Source of the DNA: an uncultured Verrucomicrobiae bacterium
GTDB lineage: Bacteria; Verrucomicrobiota; Verrucomicrobiia; Limisphaerales; Palsa-1400
Reading direction: 5' to 3'
Assembly: GCA_963764165.1 (NCBI GenBank)
Contig: CAVXRD010000003.1
Location: 576,001 to 640,000 of the forward strand
DNA: 64,000 nucleotides
Below are positions 5,482 to 54,356 of the stretch, piece after piece. Each line of letters opens with the position of its first letter. The stretch's first letter is position 1. Both the position numbers and the translations under genes were made by a program. Under the pieces are notes generated by a model that saw only the letters and a program-made list of their open reading frames with translations, was not told the origin of the DNA and did not search any database.

Positions 5482-8400
5482 GTTTTCCTCCGCTCCGTCA
5501 GAAAGCGGATGACATTGTAAAAAACGGGCGTCAGGAAGATTCCAAAAAACGTCACGCCCAGCATGCCGCTGAACACCGCCGTGCCCAGCACCCGGCGCAT
5601 TTCGCCGCCCGCGCCCTTGGCCAGCACCAGCGGCACCACGCCGAAAATGAATGCGAAGGACGTCATTAAAATCGGGCGCAAGCGCAGCCGGCTCGCTTCC
5701 ACGGCCGCTTCCTTGCGGCCCATTCCGGCGTCTTGTTGCTGCTTGGCGAATTCGACGATGAGGATGGCGTTTTTACAGGCCAGCCCCACCAGCACCACGA
5801 ACCCGATTTGCGTGAAGATGTTATTATCCATTCCGCGAATCCAGACGCCGAGAATCGCGAAGAGCAGGCACATCGGCACAATCAGGATGATCGCCAGCGG
5901 CAGCGACCAGCTCTCGTAAAGAGCGGCCAGCGTCAAGAATACAAACAGGACGCACAACGGGAAAATGTAATGCGATGTATTGCCCTCAAGGATTTCCTGG
6001 AGCGTCAATTCCGTCCATTCGAAACCCATGCTGGAGGGCAATTTTTGCTGCACCGTTTTTTCCATCGTCGCGATGGCTTCGCTGGAACTGACGCCCGGTG
6101 AGCCGCTGCCGGTGATTTCCGCGGCGGGATACATATCATAGCGCACAATGTGGTCAGGGCCGGTGACGCTGCGCACTTTGACCAGCGTGCCGAGCGGCAC
6201 CATCTGGCCCTGGCTGTTGCGAGTCTTGAAGTTCAAGATGTCCTCCGGTTCGCGCCGAAACGGCGCATCGGCCTGGGCGGTGACGTGATACGTGCGGCCA
6301 AACAAATTCAAATCGTTGACGTAGAGAGAGCCGAGATAAACCTGAAGCGTGTCGAATAAATCCGTCAGAGGAACACCCATTGATTTTGCCTTGAGCCGGT
6401 CGACATCGAGATAAAGCTGCGGCGTGCTGGCGCGGAACGTTGGGTAGGAAACCTGCACTTTTCCGGTCTTGTTCGCCTCCACCATCAACTGCATGGCCGC
6501 GCCTTGCAATGCCTGCAAGCCCGCGCCGCCGCGATCCTGCAATTCCATTTTGAAACCGCCGACCACACCCATGCCATTCACAGGCGGCGGAGGGAAAACG
6601 CCGACAAATCCTTCGGAAATTCCCGCCAGCTTCTGCCGCAAATTCCCCAGAACGACATCGCCCGTGAGACCCTTCGGAGTGCGCTCTTCGAAGTCGTCAA
6701 GGATAACGAAAACGGTGCCCGAATTCGGACTTGCGCTCAGGCTGATGACGGAAAGCCCCGCCAAATCGATGGACGCTTTGACGCCGGGCGTTTCGCTGCA
6801 AATTTTGCCGATGCGATCCACCACCGCGTCGGTGCGTTCGAGAGACGCCGAGTCGGGCAATTGCACAGCGATGGCAAGATAGCCCTTGTCCTGCGGCGGA
6901 ATGAAGCCGGTCGGCACGCGCTGGAAGCTGAACCACGTCAATCCGATCAATCCGAAGTAAACGATGACGACGAGGGCGCTGACACCAATCAACCGGCGGA
7001 CGGCGTTGCTGTAAGCGGTCGTGCAGCGTCCGAAAGCCGTGTTGAACCCATTAAAAAACCAACCGGCCGAACTGTTCAACACGCGGCTGAAAATGTCGGT
7101 TCGATGGCCGTGCGGCTGGAGCAGAATCGCGCAAAGCGCCGGGCTTAAGGTCAGCGAGTTGAACGCTGAAATCAGCGTCGAGAATGCAATCGTCAACGCG
7201 AATTGGCGATAGAACTGCCCCGAGACACCCGTGATAAATGCGGTCGGCACAAACACCGCTGCCAGCACCAGCGCCACCGCCACAACCGCGCCGCTGACTT
7301 CGTCCATCGCCTTGGCCGTCGCATCGCGCGGCGAGAGGCCGAGGCCCATGTTGCGCTCGACGTTCTCGACTACGACAATCGCGTCGTCGACCACGATGCC
7401 GATGGCCAGAACCAGGCCGAAAAGCGAGAGGTTGTTGATCGAGAAGCCCATCACCGCCATCGCGCCGAACGTTCCGATCAATGACACCGGCACGGCGAGC
7501 AGAGGGATCAGCGAGGCCCTCCACGTTTGCAGGAAGACGACGACAACCAAGACGACCAGCAGCATCGCTTCAATGAGCGTATGCACCACGGCGCGAATCG
7601 ATTCGCGGGTGAAGCCGGTAGTGTCAAATACAATTTTGTAATCCAGCCCCGGCGGGAAGCGTTTCTTCAATTCCTTCATCGCCGCATGGACGGCGTCGGA
7701 GGTTTCGATGGAATTGGAGCCGGGCAATTGGAAAATCGCGACCGCGGCGGTCGGGCGGCCATCGAGCTTGGTGTTCATGCTGTAATCCAGCGCGGCCAGC
7801 TCCACCCGGGCCACATCGCGCACCCGCGTCACCTGGCCGTCGGCGCCGTTCTTGATCGCCATGTCGGCAAACTGTTTTTCGTCCGTCAAACGTCCCTGGG
7901 TATTGACGATGTATTGGAAATCGACGCCCTTGCCCACCGGCGGCTGGCCGATCTGCCCGGCGGCGACCTGCACGTTTTGCTCGCGTATGGCGGTGATGAC
8001 GTCATCGGCAGTCAGATTGCGCGCGGCAATTTTCTCCGGGTCGAGCCAGATGCGCATCGAATAATCGCGCGCGCCGAAAATGATGATGCTGCCCACACCC
8101 GGCAAACGCGCCAGCGCATCCTTCACTTGCAGATAGCCATAATTGCTGACGTAAACCTGGTCGTAACGCCCGTCCGGAGAAAACAGGTTCACAACCAATG
8201 TAATGTCCGGCGAACTCTTCGCAGTGGTCACGCCGAGGCGGCGGGCCTCCTCCGGCAAGCGCGCTTCCGCAACGGCCACGCGGTTTTCCACCAGCACCTG
8301 CGCTTTGTCCAGGTCGGTGCCGATTTTGAACGTCACTGTCAATTGCATGGTGCCGTCGCTCGCGCATTGGGCGGACATGTAAAGCATGTCCTCCACGCCG

Positions 8401-40284: not shown

Positions 40285-42867
40285 TCACGGCATCGTCAAT
40301 CCGTAAAATCGATTCGGAAAATTTGTCCAGGTTGGGTCCGAAAAATATGCAGAGCCATTTGTGATCGCCACCGTTTGCAGCGGAACCCACTCGGGGCTCG
40401 CCAGATTGGCGCAGGCCTGCACCACGACGGAGAAATTATTCGTGCTCGTTACGTTAAAGCCGAATCGATTGCCTTGGACGCCAAAGATTCCATCGCCGGT
40501 CGCGATCACCGGTTCCCATGGCACTGCGGCGGCCCCGCTGTTGGCGGCGAACGAATCCCAGCCCGAAGTCCACGGCAAGTAGCAAACCGTAGTGCCGTTG
40601 GGTAGAAAATAGCTTGCGGGATTGCCCGGCGCGTTGCCCGCGAAGTAGACGGTGGATAGCCCGTAACAGGCCTCGAATGCGCCCGTTCCTATGCTGGTCA
40701 CACTGGCCGGGATGTGGAGGCTGCGCAAATTGGTGCAGTAGTTGAAGTCGTAGGCGCCCAGCGAGGTCACGCCCTCCTGAATCACGACATTGGTCAACCA
40801 GAAACAGCCGACGAAGGCGTCTGGGCCAACATTGGTCACGCTGCCCGGAATCGAAACGCTCTTCAGCCCGCTCCCGGAAAACGCGTCCTTGGCGATATTG
40901 AGCAGGGTCTTCGGCAGCACGATGTTGGTGAGGGTGGTCAGATTCAGGCACGCGTTGGTTCCAATATTTGTCACCGTGCAAAGCACCGTCACATTTGCCA
41001 CCACCACCGGCTCGCCGCCCCCCAACGAAGCTATGTTATTGACAATCCTTCCCGTGATGTAGGCTGGCACAATGATTGACGTGTTGGTGGTGGAATATCC
41101 ATATCCGGTAATCGTGATGCCGCCCGTGCTGTTGGTGATGAAGTAGAACGGGGAGGCTGTCGTCGCTGCCACGGTCGGCAGTCCCGCGAATTCGGCGGTC
41201 CACCTGGCCGTGCCGCCAGGATAATAGATCGTGGCCTGGGTGTCCCCCTCGAAGGCGTTGGACGCGATCGCTGCCGACACTGGCGCGTTGGTCGAAAAGT
41301 AGATTTGAGAAAGTTCCAGGCAACCCGCGAACGCGCTATCGGCAATCGTGCTGACTGTATTGGGAACCGCCGCCCAAATCAGGTTGGCGCAATCCATGAA
41401 CGCGCTGTCATCAACGTTGGTGACGCCGTAGGAAATCACCAGGTTGGTCAAAGTGCTGCAACCCGCGAAAGCCTGCGGCCCCACATCCGAAATGGGCTGG
41501 CCGAACAGATAGGAGGGAATTTGAACGTAACCATTTGTTCCAATGTAATTGGTGATGGTCAGGCTGTTGAAGTTGCCTGTCGGGGGCGCCACGCCGGATC
41601 GAACGGACGGAGCCGTCTGGAATGGCAGCAGCTCGCTGTAAACTTCATTCCACATGAGCGGCGTCCAGCCCGTTGTTCCCGGCAAATAATACGCGATGGC
41701 TGACTGTTGCAGCGCCGGCGTGCCCGTCGGCGCATCGCCCAAAAAATACACCGCCGAAATGGGGCTTCCAACAAAACAGAACGTCCCAAGATTGGTCACC
41801 GAGGCGGGCACCGTCACCGTTTCAAGGGTCTGGAACTCCTCAAATTCATGGTATCCGATGGAGGTCGTTCCGTTGGTGACGATGGCGTTGGTTAGATTGG
41901 TGCAGCCGCCAAAGACGGCGTAGAGGTCAACCAGCCCGCCACCCACGGTGATGGAAGAAAGCGCCGTGCAATTGGCGAACGCGTAAGCCGCGACATTGGT
42001 CAGCCCGGGCGGAAGCGCAATGCTCTTGAGCCGCGTGCAATTTGCGTACGCGTAGGCCGCGATGCTGACGAACGGGCATCCCCATGCGACCTGCGTGAGG
42101 CCGCTGCAATTCTCGAACGCCGCGGTCGGCACGTTGGTGATGCCGATGGGAAGATACGCATTGATCATCGAAGTGCATCCGTAAAACGCCGAGGAGCCCA
42201 GGCTGGTCACCGTCGTCGGAATAATCACCTGAATCAGTGTCCCTTTGCTGGAGAAAGCCGATGCCCCAATGGCGGTGACGGGATATCCATAGGCGATTGC
42301 CGGAAGCGTCAGGAACTGCGTCGTCCCCGTGTAACCGCTGATAGTCAGGGTGGAGCCGTTTGTTTGAAATTTGAAATAGGAAACCGGCGACATCGCGTAA
42401 GCGCCGCGCCCGCCTAGGAGCGTTCCCCATCCGGCGGCCCCGCTTTCATAATATACCGACGTGTGGCTGCTGCCTGAAAAAGCCGTCGCCGAGGCCTGCG
42501 GAGCCGAACCGCCAAAGTAGACCGCCTCGAGATTTGTGCAGTCGGCGAAAGCGCCGCCGTCGACCAAGGCGAGGTTTCCCAGCACAACCACGTCAATGGC
42601 GTTGGTCATTCCCTCGAACGCATTCGTGCCAATTTCCGTCACCGCCAGCCCGTCGATCGTCGCAGGAATCACGACGGAGCTGGCGTACCCATTGTAACCG
42701 GTGATCGTGATGCTTCCGCTCTGATTCGTTGCAAATGTGAACTGGGCTCGCGCCGTCATCCCGGCAACGGCGAGAAGCAAGCCCGCAAGCGCGCAAATGA
42801 AGAAGCTCTTCTGCGCGCGAAAAATGCACCGGCGGGCGCGTGGAATGGCGAGCGGAGGCATTTTCAT
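40285..42867 (-). CDS. Secreted BspA-type (LRR_5) leucine-rich-repeat surface protein
   Basis: Signal peptide; repeated VT.IG..AF..C..L motifs; modules ITGY.G...YF.G.AP...YY.PG..GW; C-terminal RFYG. Confidence 0.9.
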   Translation of the reverse strand: MKMPPLAIPRARRCIFRAQKSFFICALAGLLLAVAGMTARAQFTFATNQSGSITITGYNGYASSVVIPATIDGLAVTEIGTNAFEGMTNAIDVVVLGNLALVDGGAFADCTNLEAVYFGGSAPQASATAFSGSSHTSVYYESGAAGWGTLLGGRGAYAMSPVSYFKFQTNGSTLTISGYTGTTQFLTLPAIAYGYPVTAIGASAFSSKGTLIQVIIPTTVTSLGSSAFYGCTSMINAYLPIGITNVPTAAFENCSGLTQVAWGCPFVSIAAYAYANCTRLKSIALPPGLTNVAAYAFANCTALSSITVGGGLVDLYAVFGGCTNLTNAIVTNGTTSIGYHEFEEFQTLETVTVPASVTNLGTFCFVGSPISAVYFLGDAPTGTPALQQSAIAYYLPGTTGWTPLMWNEVYSELLPFQTAPSVRSGVAPPTGNFNSLTITNYIGTNGYVQIPSYLFGQPISDVGPQAFAGCSTLTNLVISYGVTNVDDSAFMDCANLIWAAVPNTVSTIADSAFAGCLELSQIYFSTNAPVSAAIASNAFEGDTQATIYYPGGTARWTAEFAGLPTVAATTASPFYFITNSTGGITITGYGYSTTNTSIIVPAYITGRIVNNIASLGGGEPVVVANVTVLCTVTNIGTNACLNLTTLTNIVLPKTLLNIAKDAFSGSGLKSVSIPGSVTNVGPDAFVGCFWLTNVVIQEGVTSLGAYDFNYCTNLRSLHIPASVTSIGTGAFEACYGLSTVYFAGNAPGNPASYFLPNGTTVCYLPWTSGWDSFAANSGAAAVPWEPVIATGDGIFGVQGNRFGFNVTSTNNFSVVVQACANLASPEWVPLQTVAITNGSAYFSDPTWTNFPNRFYGLTMP

Positions 42868-43118: not shown

Positions 43119-43941
43119 GGGCCTGTTAACACTAGTTGACATTTTATAGGCGACAAGGCAAAATGGCTGGGTGGAGCTTACAGAGAGTCAATATCAGCGG
43201 GTTGCTGATTGTCTGCCGCGGCAGCGCGGCAACGTGAGCATGACCAATCTGCAACTTCTCAACGCCCTGCTCTATGTGGTGGAGCATGGGTGCAAATGGC
43301 GCGGCCTGCCAAAACATTTTGGCAACTGGCATACGATCTACACCCGCATGAACCGCTGGAGCAAAGCGGGCGTGCTGGATCGAGTCTTCGCCCGGCTCCA
43401 GCAGGAGCAAATCCTGGCGATCCGGATCGAGCAAGTCTGCTTGGACAGCACGACGATCAAGGTTCACCCCGACGGCACCGGGGCGCTAAAAAAAACGGCC
43501 CACAGGCCATCGGGCGCTCCCGAGGCGGTTGCACCACCAAAATTCATCTGGTTGCCGCGAATGCCCAGTGCGCCTTAATGCTCAAGCTTTCCCCCGGCCA
43601 GGCGGGGGACGCGCCGCAAGGACGCGAGCTTTTGCAGGCGGGCGGGCCGGTTCCGGCAGGGCTTCCACTCATCATGGACAGCGCCTATGAAGGGGACGAG
43701 ACTCTGCAACAGGCGCGGGAATTGGGCTACGCTCCAGTGGTTCCTCCTAACCCCCGACGCTTAAATCCGTGGGAGTATGACCAAACCCTTTACCGACGCC
43801 GCAATGAGATTGAACGGCTTTTTCGCCGACTCAAAAGCTACCGCCGAGTCTTCAGTCGCTTCGACAAATTGGATGCGTTGTACTCCGGATTCGTCGTCCT
43901 CGCGCTCATCGTGGAGGCGTTACGTTAGTGTTAACAGGCCC
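43119..43941 (+). mobile_element. IS5-family insertion sequence (IS427-group-like), 823 bp
   Basis: Perfect 16-bp TIRs GGGCCTGTTAACACTA (43119-43134) / TAGTGTTAACAGGCCC (43926-43941), TA on both flanks, two overlapping transposase ORFs. Confidence 0.93.
43171..43928 (+). CDS. IS5-family DDE transposase, expressed by a probable -1 frameshift
   Basis: ORF A (GCKWRGLP..FGNWHT; DSTTIKVH) and ORF B in the -1 frame (GRSRGGCTTKIH, DSAY, YRRRNEIERLF) joined at an A8 run (43488-43495). Confidence 0.9.
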
Positions 43942-44053: not shown

Positions 44054-44128
44054 TCCAAAGTAGCTCAATGGTAGAGCACGCGGCTGTTAACCGTGTGGTT
44101 GTAGGTTCGAGTCCTACCTTTGGAGCCA
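44054..44128 (+). tRNA. tRNA-Asn (GTT)
   Basis: Acceptor stem TCCAAAG/CTTTGGA plus G-CCA, D arm GCTC/GAGC, anticodon loop CT-GTT-AA, T arm GTAGG-TTCGAGT-CCTAC. Confidence 0.97.
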
Positions 44129-44130
44129 TT
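44106..44130 (+). repeat. attL core (tRNA-Asn 3' end)
   Basis: TTCGAGTCCTACCTTTGGAGCCATT, identical to 54211-54235. Confidence 0.93.
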
Positions 44131-44289
44131 TCGTTTGGCCCTCAAATTCAAGGACTTAGAGAGTTTTGAGGGTGCCAAAAGGCCAATTGCCAGCAAATTT
44201 GCCAGCAGAATTGACAATTTGCCACAATTCGCCATTAGGCAAGTATCTCCCTCTCAGTGCTCTCTAACGGAAAATCCTAAAAAATTCGT

Positions 44290-45360
44290 ATGCTCAAGAT
44301 CATGGAAAATATCGTGAAACAAGCATATCGAATGTATCTGAGAAATGGCACTTATTATGTGCAAGACAATCAAACGGGACAGCAGAAGAGCCTTGGGACA
44401 ACCGACAAGAATCAGGCGAAACGCCTTTTGCACGCCTACAACGAAACCCGTCAATCCCCTGCCCAAAATCTCGAAATGGCGAAGGTTTATTTGTGGGGAG
44501 CCGACCCGAAACTTAAAACCCGCACTTGGCAAGAGGTTATGGACGAATTCAGCACGCACGGCAAGGAATCCAGCCAAAGCCGTTGTAAACGAGCAATGGC
44601 CTCCAAACCCTTCAACGTTATACGAAACAAACCCCTCAATGGAACAACCATTGATGATTTCAAAGCCGTTTTACAACGTGGTGGAAACGCCACGAATAAT
44701 TATCTGCGCCGTCTGCACAATCTTGCCATGAGACACCGATGGCTCGTAAGGGATATTATTCCTCCAATGGAATGGGAGAAACCCGCCAAAAGACCAAAAC
44801 GCGGAATCACCTTGGAGGAACACTCTCGAATTATCACGGCAGAGGCGAACGAGGAACGACGAAAGTATTACCAATTACTTTGGCTCGTTGGATCGGCACA
44901 AACCGACGCCTCGCAATTAACCTCAGAAAATGTGAATTGGGACACACGCGTCCTCTCTTACAGACGTATGAAAACGGGCCAATGGTCGTCGTTGCAAATC
45001 GGGACTTCGTTGGAAACTCTCTTGAAAACATTGCCTGAGCAAGGATTCTTGTTTCCGAAAATCGCCACACTCACAGACAACGACCGTTCGGCGGAATTTT
45101 CCCGTCGATGCCGTTTGTTGGGAATTGTCGGCGTCAGCTTGCACAGTTACCGATACGCTTGGGCGGAAAGAGCCTACCAGCAGGGCTATCAGGAGCGATT
45201 TGCACAAGCCGCGCTTGGCCACAAAAGCAGCGCAATTCACCACGCGTATGCGAGAAATGCGATTGTTGTATGTCCAGCATTGGAAACAATCGGGACAAAC
45301 ATCGTCACCCTCAGCCAGCAAACGACCGCCCAAACAGAACTTGAAAGAAAAATCGGGTAG
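44290..45360 (+). CDS. Tyrosine recombinase/integrase
   Basis: N-terminal arm-binding-like QKSLGTTD, RMKTG, HSYR (HxxR), LGH...HAY; adjacent to attL; start uncertain. Confidence 0.88.
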   Translation: MLKIMENIVKQAYRMYLRNGTYYVQDNQTGQQKSLGTTDKNQAKRLLHAYNETRQSPAQNLEMAKVYLWGADPKLKTRTWQEVMDEFSTHGKESSQSRCKRAMASKPFNVIRNKPLNGTTIDDFKAVLQRGGNATNNYLRRLHNLAMRHRWLVRDIIPPMEWEKPAKRPKRGITLEEHSRIITAEANEERRKYYQLLWLVGSAQTDASQLTSENVNWDTRVLSYRRMKTGQWSSLQIGTSLETLLKTLPEQGFLFPKIATLTDNDRSAEFSRRCRLLGIVGVSLHSYRYAWAERAYQQGYQERFAQAALGHKSSAIHHAYARNAIVVCPALETIGTNIVTLSQQTTAQTELERKIG

Positions 45361-45379
45361 GCACTGAAATCAAACATTG

Positions 45380-45410
45380 AAGCCGTCGTTCGAGAGACAA
45401 CGGCTTTTTT
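45380..45410 (+). terminator. Rho-independent terminator after the integrase
   Basis: AAGCCGT-CGTTCGAGAGACA-ACGGCTT followed by a T run, between convergent genes. Confidence 0.65.
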
Positions 45411-45798
45411 ATTCCACAAACGCACTTTCTGAACGTGCCGTTTCCGAGGCTTTCTCCATGTTTGGAAAAGTTCGGTCGGCTCGCGCCCGAAAATCTTTTT
45501 GCGGACTTGCGCTGTTCTTCATTTTCCAACGGTCGTAAACCGCCTGTGTTGCCTTCCAAAGCCACTTGGAGTTCTCAGCCAGTGCTCTGATTTCACAAGC
45601 CGCAAAGTATTTCGTGGCATTTTGGACGGGATTACCGAGCGGACTTAAAAGGTTTGAGCCAACTAAGACGTGGATGTCATGTTCCTGAAAACCCAAAACA
45701 TTCGCAGTCACCTTCGAGTTAATGCGCCCTGAGAGTCGTTGGACATTTAAAGTCTCATCCGCAGAGGATAAGCACGATTGATATTTGTATTTCTTCAT
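45409..45798 (-). CDS. Small basic protein, putative excisionase / wHTH DNA-binding protein
   Basis: Convergent with the integrase; TANVLGFQEHDIHVLV...LLSPLG...TKYFA resembles an Xis/MerR-like HTH; own promoter TTGACA-17-GAGAAT (45833-45805). Confidence 0.5.
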   Translation of the reverse strand: MKKYKYQSCLSSADETLNVQRLSGRINSKVTANVLGFQEHDIHVLVGSNLLSPLGNPVQNATKYFAACEIRALAENSKWLWKATQAVYDRWKMKNSASPQKDFRARADRTFPNMEKASETARSESAFVE

Positions 45799-46269
45799 CC
45801 ACTAATTCTCAGAATTTTTTAACAATCTGTCAACACTATCTAATTTCTGAATCAAAAAATCTGATTTTCCGCTTTGGTCTTACCCTGGCATACTTTGGAC
45901 TCTGGCACTTTCACTAGACGCCCTACGCCACTTCTCGTTCTTATGCCTCACCCCAGCATCACTAATGCCAAAGGCTCATGTGCCGACTTTATGAAAACAT
46001 TAGCTTTTTGAATAATGGCCGAATCGGGTTAGGTGCCTTATTTATATTTCCGACAACAAAAGGGCGATTCAAAAACCGCGAATTATCCAAAGTTCCGTAG
46101 CCCTTGCAATGCAGAATTATTCAAAAAAAGTGTAATACTAAGGACAATATGAATGACTCAATCCCTATGGCAAAAGAATCGAACGCGGACCTCGGAAGGG
46201 ATTTAGATGCGGCAAATTTCACTGATGACAGAATTCAAATGTCCACGACCAATCTCGACGCTGGCCCCG

Positions 46270-46590
46270 TCAACCCGATTGACTTACTTGAAACTCTGAT
46301 ATGCACTGCAAGGTGCGAGTATCCAAATCGGCGTCTATGGCTTTCTCTTGCCTGCGGCCCCTCGGATGTCTCTGATAAAAGACCTCTTCGCCATTCTCAA
46401 GGTCGCAAATAAAAATGTGCCCATCCGCCGCAATCCACTGATACAGGCGGATCAAGTCGGTTTTGTTATACTCTCGCCCTACAATTGCAAACGTGCGTTC
46501 GGACAGTTTTCTTACAGTCCACTCATTTAGGCAATCTTGAATAGCTGCGGGGCTGGTTATGTTCTTGAAGTCTAAAATGTATGATGGCAT
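46270..46590 (-). CDS. Hypothetical protein, possibly small ferredoxin-like fold
   Basis: 106-aa ORF with AAGGGA upstream; co-directional with upstream island genes; fold guessed from hydrophobicity pattern only. Confidence 0.5.
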   Translation of the reverse strand: MPSYILDFKNITSPAAIQDCLNEWTVRKLSERTFAIVGREYNKTDLIRLYQWIAADGHIFICDLENGEEVFYQRHPRGRRQEKAIDADLDTRTLQCISEFQVSQSG

Positions 46591-46616
46591 AATTCCCTTT
46601 TGATCTTGATGGTTAG

Positions 46617-47465
46617 TTAATTAAAATTCTTTTGAACTTCGCTTTGCGGTAAAGTCTTCGACAGCACAACGACTTTATGGGTGCTGATTCTCACGAGTAT
46701 GTCATCTTTCGTGTATTCCCAGTATGAGTTGTTCTCACCTGTATGGTATTTCATAGTCGGTATGCCATAGGCATTAACAAACATTTGAACAAACTGATCC
46801 GCAGTAAGGTTGCCCGTACTGAATAAATTATCAACAGCCAAATTGAAGAAAATTATGTTCGTAACGTTTCCAGATTGATCGTATAAAACATGTACGTTAT
46901 CGCTGACTAGGTCGTGTGCAAGGGTCTCTTTTCGGACTTGCTTAGAATCAGCAAGGTGGGGACTCCAAATTACAAAGTACTGAACTGTATCTGCTGGATG
47001 ATTTTCAATTTGCCAATCACCGCAGAATTTATTTTTAACAGCGGTCTCTAAAGATGAAACTGGCATTCCGATATACAATCCTTTGACAACAAGCCAACTT
47101 GGGACTGGAATTGGCATTTGTTGTCGCTGGGGAAGCGGATGTTCAGCCCGCCAATCTGTCGTCTCTGGTTTCCAAGGGGCAGGTTCATGCAATCTACCCT
47201 TGATAGTAGAGTAAGTCCACCAACATACGCCCGCAATAAACAGGATGAAGACAAGCCACCCCACTACTTCCCCTGAGCGTGATTCATTTTTAGAAGTTTT
47301 CGCGGTATTCCACTCGTTTGGAAACGATGCTCTCGTTTGACGCTCGCCTGTCGGAACGAGAAACGACTGATTGCACGTCGGGCAAGTGATTTGCATTCCC
47401 CGATAACCTTCATCGCATTCGAGAGCTTGTCCGCAATGAAGGCAGAAGATTTTGATTTCGGGCAT
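46617..47465 (-). CDS. Hypothetical single-TM protein with N-terminal zinc ribbon
   Basis: CLHC...CPTC, TM helix VVGWLVFILFIAGVCWW, soluble C-terminal domain. Confidence 0.75.
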   Translation of the reverse strand: MPEIKIFCLHCGQALECDEGYRGMQITCPTCNQSFLVPTGERQTRASFPNEWNTAKTSKNESRSGEVVGWLVFILFIAGVCWWTYSTIKGRLHEPAPWKPETTDWRAEHPLPQRQQMPIPVPSWLVVKGLYIGMPVSSLETAVKNKFCGDWQIENHPADTVQYFVIWSPHLADSKQVRKETLAHDLVSDNVHVLYDQSGNVTNIIFFNLAVDNLFSTGNLTADQFVQMFVNAYGIPTMKYHTGENNSYWEYTKDDILVRISTHKVVVLSKTLPQSEVQKNFN

Positions 47466-47552
47466 AGCGTTTATCTTTCCGAGAAGAAAAGACTATTCAA
47501 AAACCACGGATTTACTCAAAAAAGACATACCTTCTTCTATCTTCCGATACGC

Positions 47553-48605
47553 TTATGGCGAAAGTGTAGAGAGAACCTTCTTAGCATCATTATTTCCATT
47601 TTTGGCCGCTTTGTCCAACCACTCCCTTGCAAACGCCTTATTTTGAGTTACCCCGTCTCCATTCAAAAAGCGCATTCCAAGTTTATACTGGTATGAATCA
47701 ACATCTTGCAACGCAAGATTCACTTCCGACATAAGGAGTTTGTCGCCAAGATCAATCCTATAGCTCAAGGCCGCAAGTGTTTTCTTTGCGTCGAAATCAT
47801 CTTGCGCCGCAGCTTTCTCAAGCCATTCTTTCGCTTTTACATCATTTTTGGTTACACCGTCCCCTTTCAGGTAACGAAGTCCAAGTTTGTATTGGGATGA
47901 GGCAAATCCATTTGTTGCCTTGGCAATATCCGCGAGCAATGTTTTAGTCTCTCTTTCGGCTTTCTCGTTCTCTTGGAGAATAAGGCTTTCCTTTGCGGCA
48001 AGGGCTTTGCGGGACTCTGCCTCTTCGATCTCCTTTAAGCGTTTAGATTTAGCGGAACTATAATTCAGTTGTTCAACGTCGCTCAAATGTGGAGGCGCAG
48101 TTGGCGCACAATAATCAAGGATCAATGAATCTTGCCCGTTTGGTGCTTCGTAACCGACGATTGTGTAGTGATGTTTCAGAGGTTGCCCTAAAAACCCTTC
48201 AACTCCCCCAAATGTGTTTAAATTGCCCTCATAGACTCCTTTTCCCCTATAACGAACCATGACATCAATGTTCTGGCCGATGGCTGGAGGTCGGTGAAGA
48301 TTCCTTATTAGAACGACATAGCTGTCGTTCGGATGCAAATACTGATTTTCCGACGAATCCGACATATCATCGTCTGGCACAAACACGGCGGTCTGAGGAG
48401 ATGAAAAGTAACCTTCACACCATATTCCTTTGCTGCTAACTTTGATTACCTTTCCCGTAAACCGTCCCCAGTTCTGATCGGCCCAGATATTTTCCACAGT
48501 TCCGTTGTGAATTCGCCAATCGGGTTCTTCAGCAAGTTGCGCTTCTGATGTAGCAACCAGAGAGGAAAGCCCCGCCATTAAAACTGTCAATTGCATTTTT
48601 TTCAT
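47553..48605 (-). CDS. Exported Sel1-repeat protein
   Basis: Signal peptide MKKMQLTVLMAG...SEA; two Sel1 repeats (QYKLGLRYLKGDGV...WLEKAA; QYKLGMRFLNGDGV...WLDKAA). Confidence 0.8.
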   Translation of the reverse strand: MKKMQLTVLMAGLSSLVATSEAQLAEEPDWRIHNGTVENIWADQNWGRFTGKVIKVSSKGIWCEGYFSSPQTAVFVPDDDMSDSSENQYLHPNDSYVVLIRNLHRPPAIGQNIDVMVRYRGKGVYEGNLNTFGGVEGFLGQPLKHHYTIVGYEAPNGQDSLILDYCAPTAPPHLSDVEQLNYSSAKSKRLKEIEEAESRKALAAKESLILQENEKAERETKTLLADIAKATNGFASSQYKLGLRYLKGDGVTKNDVKAKEWLEKAAAQDDFDAKKTLAALSYRIDLGDKLLMSEVNLALQDVDSYQYKLGMRFLNGDGVTQNKAFAREWLDKAAKNGNNDAKKVLSTLSP

Positions 48606-48756
48606 AATTTTCCCTTCAAACTCGTCTTCGTTTTGAGGTTTCCTGCCTGAACGGTCATCTGATATGGATATTGCTCCTTCAGAGCAAAAGCGCAAGCGTA
48701 TAAATTGGAACAACTGTTCCTGTAAACCATGAGTTCCAAATTGGCAGATTTGACGA

Positions 48757-48999
48757 ATGCGATCAAAGGATTTTGCCAGAGCATTCGGGGTTGCCGTACG
48801 GAACCACCGAAAAGCCAAAGGCTTGACCCAAGAATCCTTGGCAGAGAAGGCCGACCTTGCCCCAAAAATGATCTCTTTGATTGAACGATTCCAACGGAAT
48901 CCGACTTTAAATGTCGCCCATTCGATTGCAGCAGGATTGTCTGTCCCATTGTGGAGGCTGGTCAAGGATGCCGACGATTTGAGACGCAAAGGGCGATAG
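48757..48999 (+). CDS. XRE-family HTH regulator
   Basis: RKAKGLTQESLAEKADL...ISLIER...NPTL. Confidence 0.9.
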   Translation: MRSKDFARAFGVAVRNHRKAKGLTQESLAEKADLAPKMISLIERFQRNPTLNVAHSIAAGLSVPLWRLVKDADDLRRKGR

Positions 49000-49044
49000 G
49001 GGTTTTCCATTATTCAACTGGCAAGTTTCGCCTGTTTATCTGAG

Positions 49045-50463
49045 TTAATAGGCTTCGACAAAAACCGCACTTTGCACAGCTTTTGGTGTTACCTGGGGTT
49101 TTGACTCAAAAGCAAAGGGTGGTTCAACCGTTTCGCCTTGCCTCCCGTAAGCGGTTTTCCTTAATGCTGGATTGAATCCGAAGCGGTTTAGAAATTCAGC
49201 TTTGAGAAGTTCCTCAACTGGCGTCGCAAATTCAGGCAAAGTCAAAATTGAGTCGTGAATAGTTAAGACAGGAAATTTTGATCCCCTTGCAATTTTGCCG
49301 ATAACCCCATAAATCACAATATCGGCCTCTTGTTTCTGGAGCCACAAGGCGCAATGCCTATGGTGGGGGTATTTCAAGTCCTGAATTTTTTGAAACAACA
49401 CGGGAAACCGACGTGCGAACGCTTGGCACAATTTGCTTGGCCTTTGCCAAATCCGATCAAAAAACACCTGAGTAAAAACAGCCTGTTTTAATTCTTTCCG
49501 TCTATCAGGGCCAAACGGATTTTCAAGTTCCCAATCAAGAGCCTCATAAAAAAGTCCGCTTCGGACAATACTCTGATAATCTTCGCGCTCATGCTCGCCG
49601 TTGTAAAGACCCAGGAGCAGCAGTGGTTGACAATTCGCAATATCAATTTCCACGAGCGGTCTTTTATCCAACCTCAAGAATGGACGCAGGTCTTTAGGTA
49701 AACTGGTTACGTTATTAAAAACCCTACCAGTATTCTTATCGAAACAGAAAAAACCCTCGCGCCCGCGAATCCACCCTGCGCTACGGTAGTAATAATCCTG
49801 TTGGCGTATATTGGAGAATTGGAATCCCTCCAAATATCTTTCGACCCCCGCATCAATCGTAACTTGTTCAAGCGATTGGGCTAGGAACTCGTGCTCCAAA
49901 CAATTCTTTACGTGACGGAACTTGGGCACCGTCGCTAACGCAATAGCTCCCTTTATCGGAATCGACTGTCTCACTTCTTTGAACCGCGCACTCTGATACG
50001 GCTCACGGAATCTGTAGCCTTTACACTTCCCATTTACTACATAATGATTATCGGTTTCCAAAATGTTTAATCTGACTAAAACATTTTTGGCTTCGCTGGC
50101 AAAGCGTGACCCCAACAAGCCCTCAATAATTTTACTGCTTATAGGGGTGAAATCGTCGTCCGTGAAGGCCTTATTCCATCGTGCTCTATAAACCACCGTT
50201 AAAATATAAAGCAGCTTCCATGCATGGCGTATCCAGTATCTTTCCTGCGCAACTTCGAGCGCTTTGATTAAATCTAAGTTTTCTGGGCAATAAAACTTGT
50301 ATTCAGTCGCTTTTGCAGAACATAAGGGAGGAGGAATAAATGATATTGATTTATTATTTAATGAAGGTATTAAAGTATTGTTATTGTTTAATGTAGATAT
50401 ACCTTTAAGTATATTTACATTAAATGATTGCTCTCGCACTTTGATGTTTAATTGTTTGGTCAT
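49045..50463 (-). CDS. Divergent superfamily-A polymerase-like protein (TV-Pol-like), putative replication protein
   Basis: TGRVF, motif A EIDIANCQPLLL, motif-B-like RKELKQAVF, LQKQE, motif C TIHDSIL. Confidence 0.65.
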   Translation of the reverse strand: MTKQLNIKVREQSFNVNILKGISTLNNNNTLIPSLNNKSISFIPPPLCSAKATEYKFYCPENLDLIKALEVAQERYWIRHAWKLLYILTVVYRARWNKAFTDDDFTPISSKIIEGLLGSRFASEAKNVLVRLNILETDNHYVVNGKCKGYRFREPYQSARFKEVRQSIPIKGAIALATVPKFRHVKNCLEHEFLAQSLEQVTIDAGVERYLEGFQFSNIRQQDYYYRSAGWIRGREGFFCFDKNTGRVFNNVTSLPKDLRPFLRLDKRPLVEIDIANCQPLLLLGLYNGEHEREDYQSIVRSGLFYEALDWELENPFGPDRRKELKQAVFTQVFFDRIWQRPSKLCQAFARRFPVLFQKIQDLKYPHHRHCALWLQKQEADIVIYGVIGKIARGSKFPVLTIHDSILTLPEFATPVEELLKAEFLNRFGFNPALRKTAYGRQGETVEPPFAFESKPQVTPKAVQSAVFVEAY

Positions 50464-50478
50464 TTAAAGTCCTTTGCC

Positions 50479-51240
50479 TTATGCGGCCATGACTTGAGTG
50501 CATTCGCCACTCTTGTAAAGGTTTTGTATAAGCTCCTGCTCCCTAAGCCAGTATTGCTTAGTATGGATATACGAACCATGACTCCGCCGTGACCGCACAA
50601 CAGTTCCATTTGTGATTTTCACATTGTCGGGCAAAATGAAAATCTCCTTTTCCTTTCGTTCCAAAAATAAACCCAAAACGTACTTTTTTTCACAGAAACC
50701 ATAGAGGCAAAATCTAAGCGGATGGGGTTGCCTATTTACAGCAAACCATTCGGCTTTGCTCTTAGAGAGGGTCCAACTGAAACCGAATATGTTATAGACA
50801 GTCGCAGCACGGTAAACGCGGAGTTTGTCGGGGAGTTTGGATAACGTCATTTGTTCCTCCTCTGTCATCATGTCTTGATGATCTGGCTTTTTAAGGTCAA
50901 GCAACGATTCTATTAACGGCATGTCCTCCCAACTGTTTTCACAGCAAGTCCAGATAAATCTAAATGCGCGCCAAAACTCGGAATCTGTTAGGTGATTTTT
51001 GACTGCATCCAGTATTGTAAACCGAAAAGGCGCACTCACACAGCGGAAAAACCCTGTCCAATTTCTTTTGCGGGCGTGGGCTATCATTTGTTCCACAAGA
51101 CCACCAGGAACACCGTTTATGGTCGCCCATAGCTCTGGATGCTGACTTATTGGATTGTCACATTCAATAAACGTCGTTGTCACGTTAGGTGTATTGTGTG
51201 GATTTGCGTTCACTGTCGTTTTATCAGTTCTGTTTAACAT
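50479..51240 (-). CDS. Hypothetical protein with ADP-ribosyltransferase-like R-S-E motifs
   Basis: VYRA...FSWTL...A.WFA...ERKEKEIFI. Confidence 0.55.
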   Translation of the reverse strand: MLNRTDKTTVNANPHNTPNVTTTFIECDNPISQHPELWATINGVPGGLVEQMIAHARKRNWTGFFRCVSAPFRFTILDAVKNHLTDSEFWRAFRFIWTCCENSWEDMPLIESLLDLKKPDHQDMMTEEEQMTLSKLPDKLRVYRAATVYNIFGFSWTLSKSKAEWFAVNRQPHPLRFCLYGFCEKKYVLGLFLERKEKEIFILPDNVKITNGTVVRSRRSHGSYIHTKQYWLREQELIQNLYKSGECTQVMAA

Positions 51241-51247
51241 AGAACAG

Positions 51248-51276
51248 ATTTTACAATGTTTTTATTGTCGAGTCAA
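51248..51276 (-). promoter_or_regulatory. Near-consensus sigma70 promoter for the ART-like/polymerase-like operon
   Basis: Minus strand TTGACT-17-TAAAAT, 7 nt before ATG 51240. Confidence 0.65.
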
Positions 51277-51820
51277 GCTAAGAGTTAAAAATTTGTTATG
51301 TTGAACATTCGTTAAACAAATAGTTTTGCACGCTTGGAAACCGAGAATTTTGTTAATTGAATAGTTGTGAAACGATCCTTTGGCTAAGTATTTATTTGTA
51401 GTAGTAAGTATTATGTCTTTGGACGGGGCACTTTTTACGGATCGTCCAAAACCATCTGACCAACAGAGTTTGCCAGCAAAAGGTTTTGGTACAAATAGTT
51501 TTCGGTTTGCTGGTGCGGATGGATGGCCAGCCCGTCGGGCAAACTCTGATTATTTTATAGTACAGAAAGCTTTAAGGAGGGTTGCGGAAAGATGACGCAT
51601 GTTGCGTCTGAAAAAGTTCTTTTTGATTTGATGCCCGTGCTCGTTTGATAAATTGGCAGCGGGGCGTGGCAAATTAAATTGAATTGATTTATTTTGGACA
51701 CCGTGTTTCCTGTGGGCGTGGCAGATCCAGAACATACGCCAGTCACGAATAGGGCACTTTGGTTCACAGGCGAGTGGAAAAGCGTTCTCTTTTTCGGCTC
51801 CAGAACTTTCTTGGAAGATT

Positions 51821-52873
51821 ATGGAACTAAAAGACCTTGAACAACAATATAGATTGTTTGCTCCACTTGGCCAACAATTCACGGGCGAATTGACACGCCA
51901 ATTGCACGAGCTATTGACGCAACAGAATGTTTCTTTAGGCTGTCCTATCCAATCCAGAGTAAAGGAATGGATTTCAATTTCCGAGAAGATTGAGCGCAAA
52001 TCGCTCCAACTTGAGAGCATCAATGATATTCCTGACTTAATTGGACTGAGAGTGATATTGCTATTTCAGCGAAGCGTCTCAGATGTTTGTGAACTTATCA
52101 AAAGTAATTTTGTAGTCCTAAAGGCCGAAAATGTTCACGAAAGGCTTGCTGCTAGTGAATTTGGATATTCATCGGTTCATTTCCAGATTAAACCACCTGA
52201 CGCATGGTTGAGCGTCCCGACTTTAAAGAGAATTGGTAAGCTCAAAGCGGAGATCCAAGTTAGGACTGTCGCGCAACACATTTGGGCATCGGCCTCGCAT
52301 GTTTTACAATATAAGCAAAAGAAAGGTGTGCCGCCATCGGTTCGCAGGGCAATTTTTCGTGTTTCGGCTCTTTTGGAAACTGTGGACTTGGAATTTGAAA
52401 GGGTTTTGATTGAACGCGCATTATATTTGGCGAATGTTCAAACTGATACGTCTGCGGAAATACTCAACGTGGATTTACTTGCAAAAATTCTGGACGAATT
52501 GCTCCCGCAGGATAATAAAGCACAAGGAGAGGAGGATTATGCGACTCTTCTTACGGACTTAGCCGATTTTGGGATCAAGACCAATGTTGAACTCAGGAAT
52601 TTAATCCAGGAGACCAAGACTTCGATAATGCTCGCGGACAGGAAAAGAGTTTTGGAAGAGCTACATGAAAAGCATGAGCGAGAGAACGCTGAGGACACAC
52701 CGTTGAATATTATTGTCGATGACGAGAGGCTTGATCGTGGCGTGTTTTTTTCTCACGTAGGGCTTGTAAGAATCGCACTTGCGAACAAATTTGGGACTAA
52801 ATGGGAGGACTACGCCATGCTACGTTGGCGCAGTGGCCAAAGTTCCAATTCCGATGAAGAAATTCAAAATTAA
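51821..52873 (+). CDS. Small alarmone synthetase (RelA/SpoT synthetase domain) with C-terminal extension
   Basis: SRVK, DLIGLRVI, GYSSVH, EIQVRT, QHIWA...HVLQYK. Confidence 0.9.
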   Translation: MELKDLEQQYRLFAPLGQQFTGELTRQLHELLTQQNVSLGCPIQSRVKEWISISEKIERKSLQLESINDIPDLIGLRVILLFQRSVSDVCELIKSNFVVLKAENVHERLAASEFGYSSVHFQIKPPDAWLSVPTLKRIGKLKAEIQVRTVAQHIWASASHVLQYKQKKGVPPSVRRAIFRVSALLETVDLEFERVLIERALYLANVQTDTSAEILNVDLLAKILDELLPQDNKAQGEEDYATLLTDLADFGIKTNVELRNLIQETKTSIMLADRKRVLEELHEKHERENAEDTPLNIIVDDERLDRGVFFSHVGLVRIALANKFGTKWEDYAMLRWRSGQSSNSDEEIQN

Positions 52874-52951
52874 TTTTGCCTTGAAATAGGAGATTGCTTT
52901 GAATTCGACCAAGTTTGGGCCAAATAAGAAGAGACGGAAGTCAGAGCCTTT

Positions 52952-53797
52952 TTATTGCGTTTTCGGTTTTGTCGGTGGACGCAACAAAACAACCTGATGA
53001 CGGTATGGCTTGGATGTGGCTTTCCAAGTTTGGAATAAGTTTACCGTGTTGAATGCCTTCATTTGTTCCTTTTCCCCCGACAATTGCTTTCCGTGCGCTG
53101 TAAATTTGGCTCGTACATAATCGTTTAGGTCGACAGGAACGACAAAATGCTCCATGCGCCCCATTTCTAAAAAGAACCAACAAAGCGTTTTCATTTTCTG
53201 ACAAGTGCTGCCAACAAGTGAGTTTGAAAGTTGCTCCGTGCCCGTCGGTACGTCATGTTCAATTATCGCATCCTCATACATGGAGTGGAAAACCTTTGGT
53301 TCTACAAAAGTTTTGAAAATGAGCGCGTACGCTTCGTTAGACACTACCGTTCCTGCGAGCTGACATTGTGCGCCTAGTCTGTGCGCGTCCATGATTGCTT
53401 TACCTACAAAACACCGCTTGCTTATCATTACGTCGCCAACGTGAACCGCGCCGCGCATGGGCAACCCTAGTTCAAACATTCTGCGGTTGATGTATGCGGC
53501 AAGAATCGCAAAAAAAATCAGATTGAATTTTATTGTGTCAGGTTTATCTGTAGCTTTTAATTCCAGCGCAACAAAAATCGTATCGGAAAATGTGAGCCAT
53601 CTCAACCGCTCTTTCACCTCGTTTATCTTGTCTTGCGGCGTGTCATTCTTTTCGTCCAATCCGTGTAACAATAACTCTGGGACTTCAGTTTCAAAATCAT
53701 CCATTACTTTCAGCACCCTTTCTGCATTGCCGAAATCACAGTTTTCGCAAAAACTTGTAAATCCCAAAACGTCAAAGAGTCCGAAAATGCAATTCAT
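52952..53797 (-). CDS. Divergent class III nucleotidyl-cyclase-like protein
   Basis: FDVLGF, FSDTI, MRGAVHVG, VGKAIMDAHRL correspond to the D / xGD / RxG..G / G..VN.A.RL motifs. Confidence 0.7.
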   Translation of the reverse strand: MNCIFGLFDVLGFTSFCENCDFGNAERVLKVMDDFETEVPELLLHGLDEKNDTPQDKINEVKERLRWLTFSDTIFVALELKATDKPDTIKFNLIFFAILAAYINRRMFELGLPMRGAVHVGDVMISKRCFVGKAIMDAHRLGAQCQLAGTVVSNEAYALIFKTFVEPKVFHSMYEDAIIEHDVPTGTEQLSNSLVGSTCQKMKTLCWFFLEMGRMEHFVVPVDLNDYVRAKFTAHGKQLSGEKEQMKAFNTVNLFQTWKATSKPYRHQVVLLRPPTKPKTQ

Positions 53798-54210
53798 ATC
53801 TTAAAATGAGACGAAACAGTTAAATTTAAAGTAATTTGTCCGCTAATAATGGCTTTTGGCCTAAAGTTGGAAAGATTTTAAGGCAAATAAGGAGGAGCAC
53901 GGGCGCGGTTAAAACCCGCCAAGGATGCGTCCTTTGCTCTCTCAGGGGCATTTTTCTGGTGTCACCCCATGTTGACCCACTTTGGACGGAAGGCGGGGCA
54001 GGACGCCTTTGGGGGACTTGCTCAGATAGTCGAAAAGAGCCGAAACGGGCAATTCTTGAAAATCTCAGGTTAATTAGGGCGAAAAGGGGGTGGGGACTGC
54101 CAGCAAAACTGCCAGCAAAAAGCAGGCTTGAGCATTGAAAGACTGATGGGAATTATACTTGATTTGCCTGTGAGAAATGGTAAAATTTTCCTTGATAAGG
54201 GCATACGGGT

Positions 54211-54235
54211 TTCGAGTCCTACCTTTGGAGCCATT
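54211..54235 (+). repeat. attR core (duplicated tRNA-Asn 3' end)
   Basis: Identical to 44106-44130. Confidence 0.93.
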
Positions 54236-54292
54236 CGACTCGGCCTTTGACGCCTCGCTCATGGCGAGCCGCAAAAGGCCGAGTCGAATGGC
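54230..54292. repeat. Long hairpin just outside attR (probably the original tRNA-downstream sequence)
   Basis: GCCATTCGACTCGGCCTTT ... AAAGGCCGAGTCGAATGGC with an inner CTCGC/GCGAG stem. Confidence 0.7.
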
Positions 54293-54356
54293 CCCGAGCA
54301 AGCGAAGCGCGCCGAGGGACTTTCCCGCAATTCCATGATCCGTGTCAGTTGAATGG

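Follow-up and report, generated by a model that had tools for sequence, protein, structure and literature searches.

The window analysed here, a stretch of 64,000 nucleotides from contig CAVXRD010000003.1 of an uncultured Verrucomicrobiae bacterium (assembly GCA_963764165.1), contains a 10.1-kb island at a tRNA-Asn gene, and within that island lies a gene for a predicted stand-alone family-A polymerase whose own coding sequence carries a conserved DNA site. With a probability of about 55%, we read the island as a small tRNA-targeting integrative element in which a protein joining a winged helix to a family-A polymerase would act as a ColE2-like, origin-specific primase-initiator on the Pol I fold, its origin lying inside its own gene. 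This reading fits best because a single site stands in or beside the gene in any frame or orientation, the winged helix is fused to the polymerase, and the palm is intact with RNA polymerase (RNAP)-like traits. What is new here is the conserved DNA site that travels with the polymerase gene. The element class itself is already known, since islands combining such a polymerase with an integrase (TV-Pol) were predicted in 2008 (Iyer, Abhiman, Aravind 2008, PMC2579912), and an earlier note on this DNA, in proposing an undescribed class, overlooked the integrase-linked stand-alone TV-Pol elements described there; it also passed over the site within the polymerase gene. Papers are cited for the parts of them that were available, and what is said of them holds for those parts. 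Feature coordinates are collected in Table 1; L-numbers label comparison loci, and C2 and C4 are contigs of the host genome.

The consensus of the site is CC[A/T]TATGTTnnGCA. From 50325 the plus strand runs for 77 nt without a C, and the adjoining AT-rich tract, which includes a 16-bp inverted repeat (50387-50402/50409-50424), encodes a linker that is mostly disordered (the low-confidence residues 22-42 of the protein model). In the closest homologs, a C/T-rich tract followed by TATGTT stands just upstream of the conserved coding start, while distant homologs have the same words, sometimes reversed, in a low-complexity in-frame insertion after motif A (L032, L079, L023, L039). An unseeded Gibbs search of 33 in-gene insertions from other organisms, with the host genome left out, returned CCATATGTTGCACA in nine of ten runs at an information content of 13.7, compared with 9.4-9.8 in three codon-shuffled controls, and the resulting matrix ranked window 50314-50329 third of approximately 14 million host positions. 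A seeded matrix ranked the window site first, but the matrix used to choose its training sites had already been exposed to the window. Among held-out cellular loci, the best site fell in the gene or within 300 bp of it in 9/23 cases against 3.1 expected (p ~0.002, with kin among the loci not independent).

The site was found in all three reading frames and in both orientations. It lay upstream in 9 of the 29 genes with a short segment and in none of the 23 with a long insertion, and 15 of these 23 insertions held a site (training sites included); the upstream and in-insertion placements exclude each other. In seven of the 12 attachment (att)-bounded islands described below, the top-scoring site was in the gene or at most 150 bp from it (two of the seven are training sites and one is weak). 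Over 52 sites, the template strand had G and C frequencies of 0.148 and 0.237 on the flank that corresponds to the AT-rich tract of the window, and both frequencies were 0.205 on the opposite flank. The literature searched, which covers few subscription papers, contained no description of the site. A weak match at L271:26825 (Vibrio phage MG592441; 11.3 bits, fifth in 50 kb) stands 64 bp upstream of a published divPolA2 gene and may be due to chance.

The 472-aa polymerase protein had no match in Pfam or NCBIfam, and its identity was read from its predicted fold. The AlphaFold model had a predicted local distance difference test (pLDDT) score of 86 and a predicted template modelling score of 0.83, with low pLDDT at the linker residues noted above, and Foldseek placed family-A DNA polymerases in every listed row, down to rank 50, at TM-scores of 0.3-0.4. 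A wide structure search (VIA) matched T7 DNA polymerase at Z 12.7 and yeast mitochondrial RNAP at Z 9.9. Residues 50-170 matched the winged helices of MarR, MCM, TubR, Cdc6 and ORC2 at Z 4.8-5.2, values that are individually middling and consistent with one another; an Atlas search with residues 48-170 gave no usable match, and no exonuclease domain was matched in the model. On the sequence side, hhalign against a 10-sequence PolA profile gave a probability of 90% with motifs A, B and C aligned (integrase control, 0.2%), the same comparison fell short of significance with a PolA profile of two sequences or with T7 RNAP by itself, and the polymerase profiles found nothing significant in the PDB.

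The key residues of the island enzyme are R247, D274, Q279, R322xxxK326 and H403-D404-S405. In 150 of 150 aligned members R247, D274, Q279, Y306, K326, E379, H403 and D404 are invariant, and R322 is kept in 135. In Pol I a glutamate of motif A serves as the sugar gate, and Q279 stands where Pol I has this glutamate. Position 304, aligned to the Pol I D-I-H, is variable (K/T/Q/E) next to the invariant Y306.

Some of these traits would also suit a miniature single-subunit RNAP for which the site is a promoter of a regulatory or antisense RNA, not of a replication primer, an alternative that we regard as unlikely. The other strand of the site, GAACATAA then GGGAGG, resembles T7 promoters (CACTATA then GG) in layout, a resemblance only; motif C reads IHDS, as in T7 RNAP; the model has structural matches to mitochondrial RNAP (the above match, over 351 aligned residues), T7 RNAP and N4 RNAP; 3 of 57 members have weak matches to "RNA polymerase" PHROGs; and the same idea has been raised for divPolA2 (PMC11348598). 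However, DNA polymerases outrank RNAPs in the structure searches, and in the alignment Pol I has counterparts of RxxxKxxxF and Q376. A T7-like RNAP has about 880 aa and several promoters upstream of genes, whereas the island enzyme has 472 aa and one site per island; the site is single where found and in most cases faces into the gene of the enzyme in antisense direction, and high-scoring sites are not enriched between genes in 31 phage loci (5/54, compared with 9% intergenic DNA).

In 4 of 31 phage groups, the next gene after that of the family member encodes a true PF00476 polymerase, and in two of these four a DnaB-like helicase follows at a distance of 2-3 kb. This place, before PolA and DnaB, is that of an initiator or primase. 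Five large phage contigs (L179, L180, L182, L185, L227) share a syntenic operon in which the family member is followed by a 406-430-aa family-A polymerase (Pfam-tested in four) and a sigma-like open reading frame (ORF), and two of these operons also contain a DnaB-like helicase. In the AT-rich large phages L197, L207, L229, L251 and L254, the gene follows a conserved ORF of approximately 440 aa without a clear Pfam family, and no clear site was seen. The host genome lacks a Pol I polymerase domain and retains a stand-alone match to the N-terminal part of Pol I only (C2:2261387-2262064); PF00476 was found in 0 of 13 genomes of the host family and in 3 of 21 relatives. A literature search by title found no paper on a missing Pol I polymerase domain in this lineage. 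A link between carriage of the island polymerase and hosts without Pol I was ruled out, as PF00476 is present in 4 of 11 other carriers compared with 3 of 21 relatives.

A complete prim-pol replicase, priming at the site and copying the whole 10-kb circle by strand displacement, would draw on the same host background, on catalytic motifs that are all intact, on islands without a helicase and on the prediction that TV-Pols are prim-pols (PMC2579912). We consider it quite unlikely, as the protein has no proofreading domain, its thumb and fingertip segments are much shorter than those of Pol I, and the second family-A polymerase adjoining the gene in large phages suggests a division of labour.

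The polymerase belongs to a large unannotated family. A profile of its relatives recovered 11,395 clusters at 50% identity, 5,169 of them at E < 1e-30. A tyrosine integrase lay within 4 kb of the polymerase gene in 25 of 36 long loci (at least 4 kb on both sides; five near-duplicate pairs included), from which the profile had been built. Fourteen loci, or 12 without two duplicates, are islands of 6.3-16.9 kb bounded by a tRNA or tmRNA duplication, which bears out the proposal that the element is compact and integrative and that its superfamily-A polymerase stands alone. By Pfam, related islands contain integrases, HTH_17, HTH_3, resolvases (L012, L118) and defence-type cargo, and no helicase, capsid, relaxase or type IV secretion system (T4SS) was matched (129/148 called ORFs, ten islands); one Prim-Pol domain was found among the ten, as well as one rolling-circle Rep that seems to belong to a second element. 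At the level of the order, 12 of 301 genomes gave a match to the family, and at that of the phylum 12 of 401 did (many of them weakly); it was further detected in 5 of 50,697 curated phages and in 199 stretches of viral contigs. No conserved cluster of small partner proteins was found beside the polymerase gene across the loci.

The polymerase does not keep company with one integrase. The window integrase belongs to a family common in the host lineage, with eight other matches in the genome and 25 in five relatives, and the 45409-45798 protein has four other genome matches, near integrases of the same family, and is also present in relatives. In the host genome these matches all stand away from any polymerase gene, the five relatives (completeness 85-95%) had no polymerase match, and neither protein had a match in 108 polymerase loci, many of just 1-4 kb. 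A core of integrase, 45409-45798 protein and polymerase, as had been suggested, thus fell away on both counts. We infer that the polymerase and its site form a mobile replication module swapped among unrelated integrases.

A second host island (C4:60918-68552, 7.6 kb), which is one of these att-bounded loci, has the same polymerase family with an unrelated integrase and HTH_17. It is bounded by a 40-bp duplication of the 5' half of tRNA-Arg CCT, its site is reversed near the 3' end of the polymerase gene, and a 157-aa ORF with an apparent ADP-ribosyltransferase (ART)-like pattern, read from its motif only and unrelated to the window ART, lies just upstream of the polymerase. In island L079 (8.2 kb), a GHKL ATPase and a Topo VI/Spo11-type Toprim protein are paired directly 5' of the polymerase gene (5314-7862), with similar pairs in L076 and L032.

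Several observations weigh against a primase-initiator with an origin in its own gene. Five of the 12 islands (L012, L064, L082, L112, L118) have no good site at the gene, and held-out viral loci showed no enrichment (5/39, with 5.4 expected). A scan of viral contigs for the site by itself gave 15 matches in ten distinct contexts, none near a family member, and a second pattern gave none. Island L004 also encodes a Prim-Pol domain immediately before the polymerase, an addition that would be superfluous for a primase able to act by itself, and many islands of the same integrase family have no polymerase. Finally, the family was found in 1 of 72,556 plasmids, and that one encodes a separate Rep and shows no top-scoring site where the gene lies; the island polymerase is therefore not an established plasmid replicon, and its identity as a plasmid Rep was ruled out.

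The anatomy of the island is that of an intact integrative element. The exact 25-bp att duplication reported in the earlier note overlaps the 3' end of tRNA-Asn, and its two copies are the only ones in the 7.0-Mb, 97% complete genome. The paired arm-like repeats held up as well, since TGCCAGCA-N4-TGCCAGCA occurs twice in the window (44188-44207 and 54098-54117) and in none of 100 shuffles, and twice genome-wide, once inside each island end. GC content is 0.443 inside the island, and the two flanks have values of 0.559 and 0.571. Each of the ten ORFs is open, and none had a capsid, helicase or conjugation match in the Pfam, PHROGs, NCBIfam and PADLOC libraries, as had been claimed from the sequence. 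A single extra arm-like copy, TGCCAGCAAA at 51471-51480 between the ART-like and alarmone synthetase genes, is a possible trace of a former end or of a junction between cargo genes. The search for an empty attB found none in five relatives, where the right-flank hydrolase was not found either and tRNA-Asn is followed by other elements or a contig edge.

Another alternative is that the island was left behind by deletions in a larger prophage or satellite; for a prophage, the earlier note had named this as a finding that would overturn its proposal. Family members in the 199 viral-contig stretches, and L010, L016 and L091 in phage-like contigs, are what such an origin would predict. Intact att ends and arm repeats, ten open ORFs, the failure to find any structural-gene fragment, and 11 other compact att-bounded islands of the same plan leave it very improbable and already largely refuted.

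The remaining genes are mainly cargo, and their labels fared unevenly: libraries supported integrase, Sel1/exported, XRE and RelA/SpoT, and the fold supported the polymerase, while the ART, cyclase and Xis labels had no library support. The Xis-like 45409-45798 ORF matched no library family and gave an hhalign probability of 2.8% against HTH_17 ORFs; it is nevertheless a probable excisionase or directionality factor. The start of the Sel1 protein was set at ATG 48605, where the sequence is signal-peptide-like. The 253-aa protein, encoded 15 bp upstream of the polymerase gene, has an R-S-ExE pattern that we take to be ART-like, without library confirmation and with a predicted model of pLDDT 49. 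In the 281-aa protein, two aspartates (D72 invariant and D9 at least 90% conserved in 31 homologs) form what is presumably a class-III-cyclase-like motif, and several library searches gave no match. The small alarmone synthetase, ART-like and cyclase-like genes would together be exchangeable conflict cargo. A defence hotspot near attR, as had been suggested, is plausible through the RelA_SpoT protein with its PADLOC PDC-S33 match and otherwise rests on motifs.

An obligatory ART-polymerase pair was ruled out, as the window ART matched just one other of the 108 polymerase loci and no ART locus was found in viral contigs. That one other locus, L011 from a metagenome, has the pair as in the window, together with a 307-aa cargo gene in common with the host's second island and a cyclase-like fragment.

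The cargo genes and the placement of the site also bear on a different view, in which the winged helix would use the site only as an operator for autoregulation, or the polymerase would itself be conflict cargo (for example, making a nucleic-acid signal with an ART-like partner), and the island would not replicate. The site is near the gene start in the closest clade, an ART-like gene is directly upstream in the window and in L011 and an unrelated one, by motif reading, in the host's second island, and most elements with the window's integrase family have no polymerase. Such a role is improbable, given that the site also lies mid-gene, downstream or flipped, unusual placements for an operator, and has a skewed AT-rich tract beside it, that the window ART recurs so rarely, and that the phage gene precedes PolA and DnaB.

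Outside the island, relatives (L272-L278, L281) show that elements of the genus integrate at tRNA-Asn repeatedly, making it a hotspot where elements stand in tandem and integrases of at least two types occur. An IS5-type transposase in two ORFs (43171-43928) lies directly 5' of the tRNA, with look-alike copies at C2:3254555 and C2:3566208. Further upstream of the island, a gene at 40285-42867 is predicted from its sequence to encode an 860-aa leucine-rich-repeat-like surface protein.

Table 1. Features of the tRNA-Asn island, in positions of the window.
Feature	Position	Strand	Basis
tRNA-Asn(GTT), integration target	44054..44128	+	ARAGORN; same tRNA occupied by other elements in relatives
attL core, 25 bp	44106..44130	+	Exact repeat search
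Arm-type tandem repeat, left (TGCCAGCA x2)	44188..44210	+	Likely integrase arm site (putative function)
Tyrosine integrase, 356 aa	44290..45360	+	Pfam PF00589 7e-9
129-aa integrase-linked protein, probable excisionase/directionality factor	45409..45798	-	Position; no family match
106-aa hypothetical protein	46270..46590	-	ORF; no library match
282-aa protein, Zn-ribbon-like start, one hydrophobic segment, cargo	46617..47465	-	Sub-threshold DZR match; sequence
350-aa exported Sel1-repeat protein, cargo	47553..48605	-	Sel1 8.7e-22
XRE-family HTH regulator	48757..48999	+	HTH_3 1.2e-9
472-aa winged-helix (residues ~50-170) and exonuclease-free family-A polymerase core	49045..50463	-	Predicted model, structure searches, alignments
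Conserved cis site TCCTCCTCCCTTATGTTCTGCAAA (plus strand ...GAACATAA then GGGAGG), predicted origin/priming site	50312..50335	-	Inside polymerase ORF, codons ~44-51; motif searches
AT-rich tract, 21% GC, predicted unwinding/R-loop region	50336..50440	+	Base composition, repeat search
253-aa protein, R-S-ExE pattern, presumably ART-like	50479..51240	-	phrog_4776 8e-31 (unknown function); alignment of 3
Small alarmone synthetase (RelA/SpoT synthetase domain) with C-terminal extension, cargo	51821..52873	+	PF04607 1.7e-19; YjbM 1.7e-13; PADLOC PDC-S33 6.6e-14
281-aa protein, presumably class-III-cyclase-like two-aspartate pattern, cargo	52952..53797	-	Motif; alignment of homologs
Arm-type tandem repeat, right (TGCCAGCA x2)	54098..54120	+	Repeat search, shuffles
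attR core, 25 bp, then 32-bp-arm hairpin 54227-54295	54211..54235	+	Exact repeat search

In the cycle that we propose for a primase-initiator, the tyrosine integrase would insert the element at the 3' end of tRNA-Asn and excise it again, as the anatomy of its ends suggests. The winged helix, a predicted fold, would bind the conserved CC(A/T)TATGTTnnGCA site, and the palm would open the ACATAA box and start a G-rich, C-poor primer into the AT-rich tract. Because the layout resembles T7 promoters and the sugar gate has changed from E to Q, this primer would be made de novo and probably of RNA. It could then be extended by the enzyme itself or passed to the host replisome, and the circle formed on excision would need no helicase of the element's own to replicate. 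As the host has no Pol I polymerase domain, a strict ColE2 hand-off would be unavailable, which would leave extension to these two routes.

The 24-bp candidate origin would supply the missing template for the old TV-Pol prediction, and assays of priming, sugar choice and mini-replicons become direct. If the proposal is true, a stand-alone Pol I-fold origin primase joins the DnaG and archaeo-eukaryotic primase (AEP) types, thousands of unannotated islands and some jumbo phages gain a replicon marker, and a compact site-specific initiating polymerase becomes usable as a tool. A broader claim, to which we would give slightly less than an even chance, is that the whole family of approximately 11,000 clusters at 50% identity consists of one-protein initiators, in which a winged helix and a minimal Pol I-fold palm recognise a T7-promoter-like origin in their own gene, melt it and prime de novo without a helicase or single-stranded-DNA-binding partner (SSB). 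Such proteins would serve small integrative islands of Verrucomicrobiota, Planctomycetota and Bacteroidota as well as some jumbo phages, and they would form an extant bridge from the priming of T7 and mitochondrial RNAPs to DNA polymerase I.

Among known mobile elements, phage-inducible chromosomal islands (PICIs) and P4-like satellites carry a primase-helicase module and packaging-interference genes (terS, capsid-size genes), and integrative and conjugative or mobilizable elements carry a relaxase with or without a T4SS. In contrast, the window gave no match to genes of the first kind in Pfam, PHROGs or NCBIfam and none to a relaxase or T4SS in Pfam or NCBIfam, and Pfam found neither group of genes in the related islands. 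The suggestion of a phage satellite lost its footing here, as no packaging or helper-hijack gene was found. The islands match those TV-Pols that Iyer et al. 2008 (PMC2579912) described in linkage with integrases. TV-Pols were described as stand-alone, minimal superfamily-A polymerases of 400-600 aa without a nuclease, with an extra N-terminal domain and beside a lambda-type integrase, were reported from Bacteroidetes, Planctomycetes and Verrucomicrobia, and were predicted to be primase-polymerases (PMC2579912). The island family likewise has the beta-hairpin arginine (R247), two palm aspartates (D274, D404) and RxxxK in the fingers (K326, with R322 in most members), the protein has 472 aa and no nuclease domain, and a tyrosine integrase is close by in 25/36 long loci, with resolvases in L012 and L118. 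Unlike in TV-Pol, the fingers aspartate is not conserved, if our reading of which aspartate was meant (variable position 304) is right. The TV-Pol N-terminal domain was predicted to be all-helical in 2008, whereas the model of the island protein predicts helices and a beta-hairpin, with winged-helix matches at Z of about 5, and the available part of that paper describes no origin sequence for TV-Pol (PMC2579912). The published TV-Pol set may contain members of the island family; the Ma-LMM01 record gave 0 matches in a search run without a positive control.

As of 2020, no TV-Pol member other than CCPol had been characterised biochemically, according to the available text of PMC7581432. CCPol-MP of SCCmec and the PolA-SSB primases are likewise family-A polymerases of mobile islands, and CCPol-MP primes de novo at a preferred site, a chemical precedent for the proposed reaction (PMC7581432; bioRxiv 2022.12.02.518924, Rice 2022). 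It needs an OB-fold partner and an origin-recognising D5-type helicase and goes with serine recombinases, whereas in the island the winged helix is fused to the enzyme and neither a helicase nor a conserved partner was found. The divPolA2 proteins of tailed phages share the palm, an N-terminal domain (of unknown kind in divPolA2), the absence of an exonuclease and structural matches to both DNA and RNA polymerases, and also stand beside a regular phage polymerase (PMC11348598). However, divPolA2 AUR84708 scored 1.5 and 3.1 bits against the family profiles and 3.6% by hhalign, and keeps E in motif A and FDE in motif C; divPolA2 is a sister lineage, not the island polymerase family. The part of a jumbo-phage review that was available (PMC7824862) does not describe the family.

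Finally, pipolins are integrative islands with direct repeats, a minimal core, changing integrases, defence cargo and a primer-independent polymerase, and in this plan they are similar to the islands studied here; their polymerase is of family B (PMC11551731), while the fold of the island enzyme is family A. ColE2 Rep, a single protein that binds the origin and makes a short primer without a plasmid helicase, provides by analogy the functional model for our proposal (PMC4538821). The two differ in that ColE2 Rep has an AEP fold, belongs to a plasmid and needs host Pol I, whereas the island enzyme has a predicted Pol I fold and belongs to an integrative element in a host without the Pol I polymerase domain.

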